Numbered from the stretch's first letter, positions 14,531 through 51,782 are shown. The stretch is 64,000 bases of DNA from an uncultured Alphaproteobacteria bacterium (GCA_902537325.1 CACBAT010000002.1:24610-88609); one strand, 5' to 3'. Notes: generated from the letters alone by a model not told the origin. Made by a program: numbers and translations.

Positions 14531-14902
14531 CTATTGTTCCAAAAATTGTTTATACTCATCTTCTGACATAAGTTCAGAATATTGATTTGAATCAGAAATT
14601 TTCATTTTAAAAATCCATCCCTCGTTTTCTGCATCTTGATTAATAATAGCAGCGTCATTTTCTAAATTCTTATTAACTTCAATTATTTCACCATCAATTG
14701 GAGCATAAATATCAGAAGCTGCCTTTACAGATTCAACGACGCATATTTCATCTTTTGCTTTAACCGAGTTTCCAACTGATGGTAATTCAATAAATACAAT
14801 ATCGCCAAGAGATTCTTGGGCATGATTGCTAATACCAATTGTGGCAATTTCATTTTCAATTGAAACCCATTCATGATCTTTTGTGTATTTTTTTTCACTC
14901 AT
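14531..14902 (-). CDS. gcvH: glycine cleavage system H protein
   Basis: YTKDHEWV and lipoyl-lysine motif VESVKAASD. The ATG at 14902 is preceded by GGGAG; the track start at 14914 is an extension. Confidence 0.95.
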   Translation of the reverse strand: MSEKKYTKDHEWVSIENEIATIGISNHAQESLGDIVFIELPSVGNSVKAKDEICVVESVKAASDIYAPIDGEIIEVNKNLENDAAIINQDAENEGWIFKMKISDSNQYSELMSEDEYKQFLEQ

Positions 14903-16019
14903 ATACGCTCCCATTTTTTTTATAATTTTTTTTTACAAAAGGTAGATTGTTTATTTTTACTAATTCTAATTTTTTTCTAATTTCACAAAAAATTGGATTA
15001 TCAGTATTAAATTCAGATTTTATGTAACCGATAGCAATAGATTTGTTAAGATTAGGAGAGAAACATCCACTTGTAATTTTGCCAATTTCATTATTATTAT
15101 TATCGAATAACGTCATTCCATCTCTTAGCATTGATTTATTGGTTGAAATTAAACCTATTTTTTTATTAGATAATTTATTTTTTAATTGATCAGATAAAAT
15201 CTTATTTCCATTTAAATTTTTGTCTTCTAATCTTTCTTTATCTAGTGCCCATGATAAACCAGCTTCAATTGGAGTAATATTTTCATTTAATTCATGACCA
15301 TATAAACTTAATCCAGCCTCAAGCCTCAATGAATCTCTAGAACCTAAACCACAAAGCATTGTATTTTCATTTTTAAGTAAATCAGTAATTAAATTTTCTG
15401 CACTTTCATTTGGAATAGAAAGTTCAAAACCATCTTCACCAGTATAACCTGATCTACTTACTATTATTTCATTGCTATCGTATTTACTTATTAAAATATC
15501 AAAAAAATTCATATTATTTGGAATATCAATAATATTTTTTAAAACATTAATAGAGTCAGGTCCCTGAATCGCGAATAAACAATTTTTGTTATAAATTTTT
15601 TCTGCATTAGGAGCACAAGAAATAAATATTTCTTCGTCTTCTTTTTTTCGAGATGCATTATAAACAATATACAAATATGACTTATCTTTAATATCAATAT
15701 TTGAAATAATTAGATCATCAATAACACCTCCATCTTTATTGAGCAAAAATGAATAATGCGATCTATTTTTAATTAATTTTTTTAATTGTAATGGAATATA
15801 TTTTTCTAATTTATGTAAATACGTTTCATTATTTTCAATTAAAATTTGCCCCATATGACTAACATCAAAAATACCAGAGTGGTTTCTGACATTTTTGTGT
15901 TCATTAATTATTCCAGTTTTATAATTAATAGGCATGTTAAAACCTGCAAATGGCAATATCTTTGCACCATTATTTTGATGAAAATTTTTCAGCGGAATGT
16001 CTAATGGTAACTGGTTCAA
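14895..16019 (-). CDS. gcvT: aminomethyltransferase, glycine cleavage T protein
   Basis: NGAKILPFAGFNMPINY, GIFDVSHMG and SRSGYTGEDGFE motifs. Starts with TTG 7 nt after GGAG; the next in-frame Met would delete conserved N-terminal residues. Confidence 0.95.
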   Translation of the reverse strand: MNQLPLDIPLKNFHQNNGAKILPFAGFNMPINYKTGIINEHKNVRNHSGIFDVSHMGQILIENNETYLHKLEKYIPLQLKKLIKNRSHYSFLLNKDGGVIDDLIISNIDIKDKSYLYIVYNASRKKEDEEIFISCAPNAEKIYNKNCLFAIQGPDSINVLKNIIDIPNNMNFFDILISKYDSNEIIVSRSGYTGEDGFELSIPNESAENLITDLLKNENTMLCGLGSRDSLRLEAGLSLYGHELNENITPIEAGLSWALDKERLEDKNLNGNKILSDQLKNKLSNKKIGLISTNKSMLRDGMTLFDNNNNEIGKITSGCFSPNLNKSIAIGYIKSEFNTDNPIFCEIRKKLELVKINNLPFVKKNYKKNGSVYE

Positions 16020-16034
16020 ATAAATACTCCAAGC

Positions 16035-16180
16035 TACCCCTCTGTCTTTTTACCTGAGAGCTTTTCACCTTCGGTAGAGCTAAATGCTCTTTTCCAGAGT
16101 TTTTTTTTAACGGTCCATTGTGCCTGAGAGTTTCCGGGTCGTTGCTCCTTCGGCTCTGAAATTTCAGTATCTCCCGTTAA
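16035..16180 (-). promoter_or_regulatory. tandem glycine riboswitch (two aptamers) in the gcvT leader
   Basis: Minus strand aptamer 1: GGGAGA...GCCGAAGGAGCAA...CUCUCAGGCACAAUGGACCG. Aptamer 2: CUCUGGAAAAG...ACCGAAGGUGAAA...CUCUCAGGUAAAAAGACAGAG. Both match the glycine-aptamer core. Confidence 0.85.
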
Positions 16181-16212
16181 TTATTTTTATACTTATTTTT
16201 ATAATTTAACAA

Positions 16213-16785
16213 TTAATTTAAAGGAATTTTATTATCAATTTTTGATTTTTGATAAATTTGTGACATTTTTTGGTACTCTTCTTTGATCTGATATATTTTA
16301 TCTGATAATGAGCCCTCTATACCTAATCTTTTAATTTCCGATAAAATTGAGAAACTCTCCCAATAATCATTATTAATATTATATTTACCATCTTTGATTT
16401 TAAATACTTCTGTCAAAATTTTAAGATCGTGTGGAATATGAAAACCTTCTTTTGTATCGGTATAGGAAAAAAAATAGTAAAAATTGTCAAATCCAGCCCA
16501 GGTTATGGCTGATAAACACATAGAACAAGGCTGATGTGTACTTATGAAGTAATAATCTTTTGTATTAAACAGTTTTTTTTCAAATAAATTAAAAAGAGTT
16601 GAAATTTCTCCATGAAATAAAGGGTTTTTGATTTCCTGGTTTGTACCAAGACAAACAAGACTTAGGTCAGATTTTTTAACAATAAATCCACCAAATATTT
16701 TATTTCCTTCATTAATTGAAATTTTTGTTAATGGGATTAGATCATCTAAAATAATATCTAAGATTCTTTCATAATTTGTTATCAT
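16213..16785 (-). CDS. CMP/dCMP-type zinc deaminase family protein (guanine/nucleoside deaminase-like)
   Basis: Zinc-binding HGE (LFHGEISTL) and PCSMCLSAI (PCxxC) motifs of the cytidine deaminase-like fold. Confidence 0.75.
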   Translation of the reverse strand: MITNYERILDIILDDLIPLTKISINEGNKIFGGFIVKKSDLSLVCLGTNQEIKNPLFHGEISTLFNLFEKKLFNTKDYYFISTHQPCSMCLSAITWAGFDNFYYFFSYTDTKEGFHIPHDLKILTEVFKIKDGKYNINNDYWESFSILSEIKRLGIEGSLSDKIYQIKEEYQKMSQIYQKSKIDNKIPLN

Positions 16786-16829
16786 TATGAAATGTCTGAT
16801 ACTTTATTTATTAGATTTGTCCATCAAAC

Positions 16830-16860
16830 AAAAAAAAAGGACCCAGCAAGCTAGGTCCCT
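16830..16860 (-). terminator. intrinsic terminator inside the deaminase 5' leader (minus-strand specific)
   Basis: Minus strand GGACCUAG-CUUG-CUGGGUCC gives an 8-bp stem including one U-G wobble, followed by U9. On the plus strand the wobble becomes a C-A mismatch and only 4 U follow. Confidence 0.6.
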
Positions 16861-17065
16861 TTTGTGTATCGTGCATTTCCTCCCGATACAATTTAATAAT
16901 CGTTTCCTTTTATTAAATTGATTATCACCTTTGCGTGTAATAATTAAATATAATTTATCTATTTGTTATTTATCAATCAATAAAAAAATGTATTTTTAAA
17001 AGTAAATAATCTTTTTTTGTTGATATGTTTGTTAATAAAATGTGCAAAATTAAATTTGATTAAAA

Positions 17066-18172
17066 ATGAGTAAAAATTCAAAACTTAATGTCTTAGGAGT
17101 TATGACAGGCACATCAATGGATGGCGTTGATATAAGTTTGATTAATACAAATGGGACTGACTTTGTAAAAATTAAATGTGAAAAATCATATAAATTTGAT
17201 AAAAATTATCAAAATACACTAAACAATCTAATATTAAATAAACCAAAAACTAATAATAAAATTAAAGAATATTTTTTAAAAAAAGATGATTTCGTTACAG
17301 ATATTTTAGAAAAAAAAATAATTTTATTTCTAAAACAAAAAAAAATTAATAAAAAAAATATCGATTTAATATCAATTAGTGGACAGACTGTTTACCACGA
17401 CCCATCGAATAAAATATCTATACAATTAGGAAATGGAAACAAAATTGCAAAAAATCTTAAAGTTAAAACTATAAGTAATTTAAGAGATAATGATATTAAA
17501 AATGGTGGTCAAGGAGCACCAATTGGATCATATTATCATAAGTTTTTAATACAAAAATTTAAGGAAAAAGCGATTATAGTAAATCTTGGAGGTATAGCAA
17601 ATTTTTCAACTGTAGTTTCAAGAACATTATTATCATCGGATATAGGGCCAGCAAATTGCTTAAGTGATGATCTTTGCAATTATTTTTTTAAAAAAAAATT
17701 TGATAATGATGGAAATTATGCAAGAAAAGGTAAGATTGATAATAAATTAATCGAAAAATTCAAAAAAGATAAATTCTTTAAGAAAAAGTTCCCAAAATCA
17801 TTAGATAGAAATTATTTTAGAAATTATTTTAATAAGCTTATTAAATTGAACAAATATGATGCGTTAATGACTGCTAACTACATGACTTACATTGGGTTTA
17901 AAGAATTATTAAAAAATAAAAAATTTAAGATTGAAAGAATTTTACTTACTGGAGGAGGAAGAAAAAATAAATTACTCAAAGAAATATTAATGAATAAACT
18001 TAATAAAAAAATTGAACTTATTGATAAATATAAAATAAATGGTGATTTAGTAGAAGCTCAAATGTTTGCGTATATTGGCATGAGATCATTTAAAAATTTA
18101 GAAATAAGTAATAAAAATACTACAGGTGTGAAAAAAAATTTAAGTGGTGGTATTTTATATTTTCCAGATTAA
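17066..18172 (+). CDS. anmK: anhydro-N-acetylmuramic acid kinase
   Basis: N-terminal GVMTGTSMDGVD, GGQGAPIG and LTGGGRKN motifs typical of AnmK. Confidence 0.85.
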   Translation: MSKNSKLNVLGVMTGTSMDGVDISLINTNGTDFVKIKCEKSYKFDKNYQNTLNNLILNKPKTNNKIKEYFLKKDDFVTDILEKKIILFLKQKKINKKNIDLISISGQTVYHDPSNKISIQLGNGNKIAKNLKVKTISNLRDNDIKNGGQGAPIGSYYHKFLIQKFKEKAIIVNLGGIANFSTVVSRTLLSSDIGPANCLSDDLCNYFFKKKFDNDGNYARKGKIDNKLIEKFKKDKFFKKKFPKSLDRNYFRNYFNKLIKLNKYDALMTANYMTYIGFKELLKNKKFKIERILLTGGGRKNKLLKEILMNKLNKKIELIDKYKINGDLVEAQMFAYIGMRSFKNLEISNKNTTGVKKNLSGGILYFPD

Positions 18173-20347: not shown

Positions 20348-20551
20348 TTATTTTTTCTTAATATTAATAGCGTTTTCTTTTCCACGGTTTTCACCGATTT
20401 CAAATTCAACTGGCATACCTTCTTCTAAAGTATCAATACCAGCAGCTTCTAAAGCTGAAACATGAAGAAAAACATCTTTTCCTCCATCATCATTTTCTAT
20501 AAATCCATAACCTTTGGTCGGATTAAACCATTTAATTTTACCACTTGGCAT
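20348..20551 (-). CDS. cold-shock protein (CspA family)
   Basis: [15 protein letters not shown] (RNP1) and DVFLHVSAL (RNP2). AAGGAG SD lies upstream. Confidence 0.95.
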
Positions 20552-38799: not shown

Positions 38800-38873
38800 G
38801 GCTCGGTGGCAGAGTGGTGATGTAGGGGCCTGCAAAGCCTTGCACAGCGGTTCGATTCCGCTCCGAGCCTCCA
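38800..38873 (+). tRNA. tRNA-Cys (GCA)
   Basis: Hand-folded cloverleaf: acceptor GGCUCGG/CCGAGCC, anticodon loop CUGCAAA, T-arm AGCGG-UUCGAUU-CCGCU, encoded CCA. Confidence 0.9.
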
Positions 38874-38920: not shown

Positions 38921-38995
38921 TCCTCGGTAGCTCAGTGGTAGAGCAATCGGCTGTTAACCGATCGGTCGCTGGTTCGAGCCCGGCCCGGGGAGCCA
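38921..38995 (+). tRNA. tRNA-Asn (GUU)
   Basis: Acceptor UCCUCGG/CCGGGGA (one U-G), D-arm GCUC-AGUGGUA-GAGC, anticodon loop CUGUUAA, T-arm GCUGG-UUCGAGC-CCGGC, encoded CCA. Confidence 0.9.
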
Positions 38996-51706: not shown

Positions 51707-51782
51707 TGGCGCGCCCGAAATGATTCGAACATTTGACCTACCGCTTAGAAGGCGGTTGCTCTATCCACTGAGCTACGGGCGC
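51707..51782 (-). tRNA. tRNA-Arg (UCU)
   Basis: Reverse complement folds as acceptor GCGCCCG/CGGGCGC, D-arm GCUC-AGUGGAUA-GAGC, anticodon loop CUUCUAA, T-arm AAAUG-UUCGAAU-CAUUU, encoded CCA. Confidence 0.9.

Follow-up and report, generated by a model that had tools for sequence, protein, structure and literature searches.

Weinberg et al. reportedly described IMES-4 RNA in Nature in 2009 on the basis of marine metagenomes, and in the same year Shi et al. are said to have seen it in marine metatranscriptomes as well. It is reported to be an abundant RNA in marine metatranscriptomes; to our knowledge, it had no cultured host when it was described, and we know of no function for it. Among the heterotrophic bacteria of the ocean, those of the SAR11 type are the most abundant. 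Among the small RNAs with which IMES-4 can be compared, CsrB carries many GGA motifs, and GcvB is encoded beside glycine-cleavage regulation. Here we report an IMES-4 RNA gene (16944-16830, minus strand), which encodes a ~115-nt small RNA of SAR11-type marine Alphaproteobacteria, together with the promoter, terminator and genomic neighbourhood that accompany it in its relatives.

The window, by which we mean the whole 64-kb stretch of DNA that was analysed, comes from an uncultured Alphaproteobacteria bacterium, has a GC content of 28% and is 95-99.7% identical over ~8 kb to several IMES-4-bearing single-cell genomes. When the whole window was scanned with Rfam 15, as the earlier note on this DNA had asked, the IMES-4 RNA motif (RF02037, Rfam type 'Gene') was matched over its full length (model positions 1-80, all that it has) by 16944-16865 of the minus strand, with E 2.6e-15 and a score of 98.5 bits, where the gathering score is 48. 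All three consecutive hairpins, with their conserved loops CACGCAAAGG, GGAAAC and GGGAGGAAAUG, lie within this interval, and the minimum-free-energy (MFE) fold gives the same three. The hairpins, the conserved loops, the marine origin and the AT-richness are those of RF02037, the score is twice the gathering score, and in the RNA itself we found no difference. IMES-4 is an already catalogued family, and the RNA of the window is a member of it by every feature compared here. Beyond the Rfam model lie a conserved promoter, a terminator with an invariant apex and a fixed locus (anmK / (EamA) / IMES-4 / deaminase / glycine riboswitch / gcvTHP); this context, together with the host range, may be new relative to the model. 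No second copy was found in the 64-kb window with search filters off, and a permissive cmscan of 15900-17200 (E <=10) returned, besides IMES-4, only the glycine riboswitch and weak matches to sRNA families, which we regard as noise and which fall mostly on the terminator. A phage origin of IMES-4 was rejected, as the loop pattern is absent from viral contigs.

The gap that holds the RNA (16786-17065) is flanked by the deaminase ORF on the minus strand and by a divergent AnmK ORF on the plus strand (17066-18172, 368 aa, Pfam PF03702, E 1.2e-65). The Pfam domains PF00383 and PF03702 on the flanking ORFs bear out the earlier note, which had placed the gap between a deaminase and anmK. Within it, that note had described a 7-bp hairpin, UGUAUCG...CGAUACA (16890-16865), with the loop GGAGGAAAUGCA, followed by a terminator. 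Both are present, but they are the last third of IMES-4: the hairpin is P3 of a three-hairpin motif, and the element does not start there, as P1 and P2 lie upstream and had been missed. With the promoter region included, the extent is corrected to 16988-16830. Of the two functions considered at the time, an orphan sRNA of ~115 nt with its own promoter holds, but as a member of a known family, whereas a riboswitch or attenuator does not, given that there is no aptamer match, no antiterminator and a variable downstream gene. The features of the locus are collected in Table 1.

Table 1. Coordinates of the IMES-4 gene and the adjoining deaminase gene in the window, in order of transcription.
Feature	Position	Strand	Basis
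T-run (T7), possible UP-like element	16982..16988	minus	sequence; T-run at -44..-39 from P1 first base kept in 26 upstream lineages
-35 box TTGATT	16975..16980	minus	sequence; TTGaT at -36..-31 kept in 26 lineages
-10 box TAAATT, 17-nt spacer from -35 box	16952..16957	minus	sequence; TAnnTT at -13..-8 conserved
P1 hairpin, 8 bp, loop ACGCAAAG	16921..16944	minus	RF02037 positions 1-24; 98.8% of cells paired; 4/8 pairs change on both sides
P2 hairpin, 13 bp, GAAA tetraloop closed by G-C	16890..16919	minus	RF02037 positions 26-55; 11/13 pairs change on both sides
P3 hairpin, 6 bp, loop GGAGGAAAUGCA, one trailing A	16865..16889	minus	RF02037 positions 56-80; 99.7% of cells paired; 4/6 pairs change on both sides
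Intrinsic terminator, fourth hairpin: 13-pair stem, CUUG loop, U9 tail	16830..16863	minus	consensus scan; outside Rfam model
44-nt spacer, U-tract to deaminase ATG	16786..16829	minus	sequence; 14-53 nt in most lineages
CDA-fold deaminase gene, 190 aa, syntenic partner	16213..16785	minus	PF00383, E 2.9e-10

IMES-4 has a number of features in common with known regulatory RNAs. With the CsrB/RsmZ sponges it shares serial hairpins with GGA purine loops (P2 G-GAAA-C; P3 GGGAGGA), a stand-alone gene, an intrinsic terminator and, in some genomes, tandem duplicates. Unlike them, it is poor in GGA motifs, with two or three, a low number for this class (the P2 cap has one GGA, the P3 loop has two, and the P1 loop has AAAGG only), and the loop contexts fit the A(N)GGA hexaloop consensus poorly. 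We speak of a resemblance to CsrB/RsmZ only, and membership is not claimed. A tblastn search with E. coli CsrA, confined to the 64-kb window, gave no significant match (E 0.17). Hfq-type sRNAs are likewise ~100 nt long, are transcribed from a promoter of their own, end in a U-rich tail behind a GC-rich hairpin and have conserved single-stranded segments; in IMES-4 the terminator and a tail of U7-10 are present, and no credible target was found within the 64-kb window. The analogy with GcvB is a loose one, in that IMES-4 also adjoins gcv genes, but it has no similarity to GcvB in sequence or structure, and no GcvB match was found in Rfam. Finally, as in terminating riboswitches and attenuators, a conserved structured RNA is followed by an intrinsic terminator just before a same-strand metabolic gene; unlike these, IMES-4 has no junctioned aptamer and no antiterminator, a minority of lineages have a variable or oppositely oriented gene downstream of it, and its terminator is conserved in sequence.

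Relatives were collected in two ways. One genome per species was scanned for the exact pattern of P1 loop, gap and P3 loop, leaving the stems free, which gave 86 loci. Eight of these were discarded as chance matches in unrelated GC-rich taxa (L007, L030, L035, L046, L066, L073, L075, L082), and the remaining 78 are true and all come from marine single-cell or metagenome-assembled genomes. By title, the 78 bearers are uncultured Alphaproteobacteria, Pelagibacteraceae/Pelagibacterales (SAR11), HIMB59-LRMED and MarineAlpha5, with no cultured strain named. As the loop-matching pattern forces identical loops, a second set was selected via the neighbouring deaminase, independently of the RNA: a deaminase profile (A2, members 53-75% identical to the window protein) was run against metagenome contigs, and the resulting 80 loci were searched with a covariance model (R1) built from the RNA alignment A1 described below. 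IMES-4 was found at 40 marine metagenome loci, with 38 full-length copies. Every AT-rich deaminase locus with sufficient upstream DNA carries IMES-4, whereas 34 loci at 34-67% GC (within L116-L166) are deaminase homologues of other taxa that have neither IMES-4 nor gcvT. The latter homologues are 48-58% identical and come from apparently unrelated bacteria of varied environments. Throughout, IMES-4 is present as a single copy per genome, except for two tandem pairs (L004, L077).

Judging by a published gene table (PMC2704228), HTCC1062 seems to have neither IMES-4 nor the deaminase, the glycine riboswitch following directly after a membrane-protein gene. Our literature search, which did not reach the original description (Weinberg et al. 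2009), found no mention of IMES-4. That all bearers in the genome scan are uncultured, and that HTCC1062 apparently lacks IMES-4, may explain the absence of functional work in the literature searched.

The structure of the RNA is well supported by its relatives. In the window, the MFE fold of the minus strand consists of exactly four clean hairpins (-34.8 kcal/mol, z = -6.0), compared with -21.6 kcal/mol (z = -3.2) for the plus strand, in agreement with the strand specificity claimed for the element. An alignment of 52 distinct RNA sequences of 110-117 nt (A1) has a four-helix structure of 36 pairs, in which 94.7% of cells form standard pairs, compared with 32-44% when the partners are slid by 1-3 columns. 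Compensatory changes in relatives, which had been proposed as a check on the hairpins, are contributed by each of the four helices (P1, P2, P3 and the terminator): 25 of the 36 pairs change on both sides, and the observed values were reached in 0 of 500 shuffles. Two positions below the P2 cap are unpaired in the window's clade, and the ACAAAAG segment after P3 is an A-rich stretch ahead of the terminator.

Near-invariance of the loops extends to the 38 full-length copies of the protein-selected set. The P1 loop is CACGCAAAGG there, with CACGUCAAAAGG in two copies, and GGAAAC, the P3 core GGAGGAAA and the terminator apex are kept, GGAGGAAA being invariant. Two further uses of the loops were considered and rejected. 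Kissing between GCA of the P1 loop and UGC of the P3 loop would involve 3 bp only, and variants with CACGUCAAAAGG (L119, L127) or with UGU (L005 type) are uncompensated. A small peptide starting at the AUG of the P3 loop would have 21 codons in the window, but the frame is not conserved: many relatives have MHDT-stop instead, and the clade of L005, L013 and L084 has MS-stop.

Upstream of P1, 70 nt could be aligned for 26 distinct lineages with no gaps, and positions are given relative to the first base of P1. The promoter proposed in the earlier note (TTGATT-17-TAAATT, 16980-16952) is in the sequence and consists of exactly the boxes that are conserved in these 26 lineages; the tandem copies in L004 and L077 have TTGATA or TTGATG at the same -35 position in both copies. 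The T-run further upstream may serve as an UP element. P1 begins ~7-8 nt past the -10 box, and the distance between promoter and P1 is fixed across lineages. From sigma-70-type boxes at such a fixed spacing, we predict that transcription starts at ~16944-16945, on the first base of P1. Together, the conserved promoter, the U-tract of 7-10 and the constant length indicate that IMES-4 is a promoter-to-terminator unit with predicted ends.

The terminator had been described as GGACCUAG-CUUG-CUGGGUCC followed by U9 and ending at 16830. It is present as described, and our scan lengthens its stem to 13 pairs (16863-16834). It is the sole terminator-like site in 15900-17300, where shuffles give 0.3, and the hairpin by itself has a predicted energy of ~ -15 kcal/mol. 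In A1, changes on both sides affect 6 of its 9 core pairs; 49 of the 52 variants have the same apex, CUAG-CUUG-CUGG with the U.G wobble, the lower stem covaries, and the U-tract has 7-10 U across variants. Conservation of the apex equals that of the IMES-4 loops, so that it would be useful to lengthen the Rfam model by ~35 nt.

An attenuator would combine this terminator with a mutually exclusive antiterminator, and in 83 variants no competing fold is predicted. Forbidding the terminator costs a mean of 15.1 kcal/mol in these variants (range 8.8-17.1), and the 5' half of the terminator is mostly free in the nascent transcript (mean pairing probability 0.26). The antiterminator that had been suggested, a pairing of GGAGGA with UCCUUU, falls away on comparison: most lineages outside the window's clade read GGGUCUUUU instead of GGGUCCUUU, so that UCUUUU stands in place of UCCUUU and the pairing is not conserved.

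We then considered the relationship of IMES-4 to the gene next door. The deaminase, which among solved structures is closest to guanine deaminase (1wkq, E 2.5e-9), starts at 16785, 44 nt past the terminator, as had been claimed. In an attenuator, a constant 5'-leader placement on the same strand would be expected; the deaminase is directly downstream of IMES-4 on the same strand in 69 of 77 genome copies only, and the downstream gene is replaced or absent in four genomes. In two of these (L021, L040), an FKBP-like gene stands in place of the deaminase and IMES-4 is kept. The swap is exactly at the start codon, with the usual spacer before the ATG retained, and the gene encodes a 240-aa secreted FKBP-like protein (identity by eye). 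In the other two (L004, L077), the deaminase is absent. Here IMES-4 is present as two tandem copies, both with -35/-10 boxes and a terminator of their own, and after them come a promoter-like site and the gcvT glycine riboswitch. These tandem copies (L004 3256-3586, L077 1889-2216) are ~218 nt apart, and three of the four (both in L004 and the first in L077) have a variant terminator of the GACCUAG-CAA-UAGGUC type and variant P2/P3 stems.

Elsewhere, a gene on the opposite strand separates the two. Of the 77 genome copies, 3 (L049, L056, L083) have a PBP_like_2 gene in between, as do 7 of 40 metagenome loci, i.e., an opposite-strand gene intervenes in ~4-18% of lineages, and in those lineages the deaminase must have its own promoter. 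The insertions of this solute-binding protein gene are found at L049, L056, L083, L115, L123, L124, L130, L148, L151 and L161. As the PBP_like_2 stop codon abuts the U-tract of IMES-4, the terminator may act bidirectionally there. Overall, we conclude that IMES-4 is its own gene, whereas a role as leader or riboswitch of the deaminase is not supported, and the deaminase is best described as a syntenic partner of IMES-4. The short spacer from U-tract to ATG nevertheless leaves leak-through from the IMES-4 promoter conceivable.

The surroundings of the gene contain further elements of interest. A glycine riboswitch lies ~600 nt from IMES-4 on the same strand. It is a tandem riboswitch (16038-16189, minus) directly before gcvT (14895-16019), which is followed by gcvH and gcvP, and it scores 61.4 bits with RF00504 against a gathering score of 32 and 75.8 bits with the two-aptamer model glycine-GGAnGA, under the gathering score of 110 of that model. 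As the riboswitch starts ~23 nt after the deaminase stop codon, either its promoter is inside the deaminase gene or the two are co-transcribed. As to CsrA, Hfq and similar proteins, the window holds only a cold-shock-domain (CspA-like) gene (tblastn E 4e-15), at 20396-20545 (minus) and so ~3.5 kb away from IMES-4; Csp proteins have been proposed as RNA-binding regulators in Pelagibacter (PMC2864753). The Rfam scan also gave three tRNA genes, at 38800-38870 (+), 38921-38992 (+) and 51710-51782 (-), and the promoter scan a promoter-like site at 16255-16226, inside the deaminase gene.

Based on our findings, we consider it probable that IMES-4 is a free-standing, stable RNA gene that runs from promoter to terminator and whose loops face a conserved partner. 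A sigma-70-type promoter would start the transcript at the first base of P1, and the transcript would fold into P1, P2, P3 and the terminator and end at this strong intrinsic terminator, which has no predicted competitor. The RNA would then act as a free-standing and stable molecule and not as a leader, with the near-invariant purine-rich loops (ACGCAAAG, G-GAAA-C and GGAGGAAAUGCA) and the invariant terminator apex as its putative working surfaces. The loop GGAGGAAAUGCA can be seen as resembling a Shine-Dalgarno sequence closely followed by AUG. The partner would most likely be a protein, which is bound or titrated, or alternatively a C/U-rich RNA. That the loops stay constant while the adjacent deaminases diverge to ~55% identity argues for a protein or ribosomal partner, or for many targets, and we weakly favour protein binding or titration over base-pairing. 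The nearness to the deaminase would be inherited synteny, with at most some leak-through that aids transcription of the deaminase.

It should be noted that several points count against this explanation. Both ends of IMES-4 and its abundance are predictions from sequence, and the RNA lies directly upstream of a same-strand deaminase in the large majority of its genome copies (the 69 of 77 given above), with a spacer of 14-53 nt that leaves little room for an independent deaminase promoter. Moreover, the co-occurrence of the two at every testable AT-rich locus, and their joint absence from HTCC1062 as far as the table goes (PMC2704228), would also be expected of a functional cis link.

The main rival takes up these points and is possible, though we think it rather unlikely. 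It holds that IMES-4 has a dual use, being a stable sRNA from whose promoter the deaminase, too, is mainly or solely transcribed in lineages of the adjacent type, including the window; a fixed fraction of read-through at the terminator would yield deaminase mRNA and link expression of the deaminase to transcription of IMES-4, with no sensing of a ligand. This would account for the short distance from U-tract to ATG (14-53 nt in most lineages), for the result of the promoter scan, which found no promoter-like site in the spacer (16786-16829), for the constant company of IMES-4 and deaminase at testable AT-rich loci, and for the two genomes with an FKBP-like gene, which keep the same spacer before a different gene in the manner of an expression cassette. 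However, read-through would have to pass a strong terminator with a 13-pair stem, U7-10 and no alternative fold predicted, and the PBP-interrupted lineages require a separate deaminase promoter. Weak promoters are also easily overlooked in AT-rich sequence: TTTGAT-16-TAAAGT, which overlaps the U-tract in the window, was read by eye and is below the scan threshold.

A similarly doubtful alternative is that IMES-4 is a base-pairing sRNA in which the loop GGGAGGAAAUG and/or ACGCAAAG serves as the seed for C/U-rich mRNA sites elsewhere in the genome, assisted by an RNA chaperone on the A-rich spacer and the U-tail. The gene has its own promoter and an intrinsic terminator that ends in a long U-tail and is preceded by ACAAAAG, and its unpaired segments are invariant, a build that is typical of such sRNAs. 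A duplex scan of the translation-start regions in the window for a partner RNA gave nothing credible, however: among the 67 start regions, drawn from 64 kb of genome, there was one outlier (-19.9 kcal/mol), and this best RNAduplex match was judged to be due to chance, as it draws on bases of the P3 stem and falls within coding sequence. We likewise rejected a pairing between the P3 loop and the CAUUUC that shortly precedes the deaminase ATG, since it would comprise 6 bp only and is absent in other lineages.

We regard as very unlikely a reading in which IMES-4 is a decoy of a translation-start site that titrates a translational regulator or 30S. The titrating would be done by the invariant P3 loop, in which GGAGG is followed by AAAUG, together with the GGAAA and AAAGG loops. 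In a variant of this reading, the RNA, a leaky terminator and the spacer would form a portable expression cassette that expresses whichever gene sits behind it, whether the deaminase or the FKBP-like gene. Shine-Dalgarno use in the window appears to be very low, with GGAGG at 0 of 67 and GGAG at 5 of 67 gene starts within -20..-4, these starts being crude (the first start codon of the longest ORF). Should IMES-4 prove to be such a decoy, it would imply global post-transcriptional control in SAR11-type cells with a streamlined, Shine-Dalgarno-poor genome.

Least likely of all, and in our view highly improbable, is cis-regulation, by which the three hairpins would sense a metabolite, a protein or temperature and switch the deaminase, and perhaps the gcv genes, via the terminator: the leader-like position (adjacent upstream on the same strand in 69 of 77 copies), the conservation of the loops as if for a binding site and a 7-bp pairing of AAAAGGA in P2 with UCCUUUU on the 3' side of the terminator, possible in the window's clade, would fit it, but no riboswitch family in Rfam 15 matches the IMES-4 region even at E <=10, the RNA consists of simple hairpins one after the other and lacks a multi-helix junction, no antiterminator that could compete energetically is predicted, the alternative pairings are weaker in lineages with GGGUCUUUU in the terminator, expression platforms do not usually keep the sequence of the terminator apex as IMES-4 does, some loci (3/77 and 7/40) have the intervening opposite-strand gene, and IMES-4 persists in genomes that lack the deaminase there, in two of them as tandem copies that each have a promoter.

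A catalogued RNA family accounts for the gap, and in this respect the finding is an ordinary one. Its value lies in the context that it gives to an orphan RNA of SAR11-type bacteria, as a single-copy promoter-to-terminator unit that resides at a fixed locus beside the glycine-cleavage genes.
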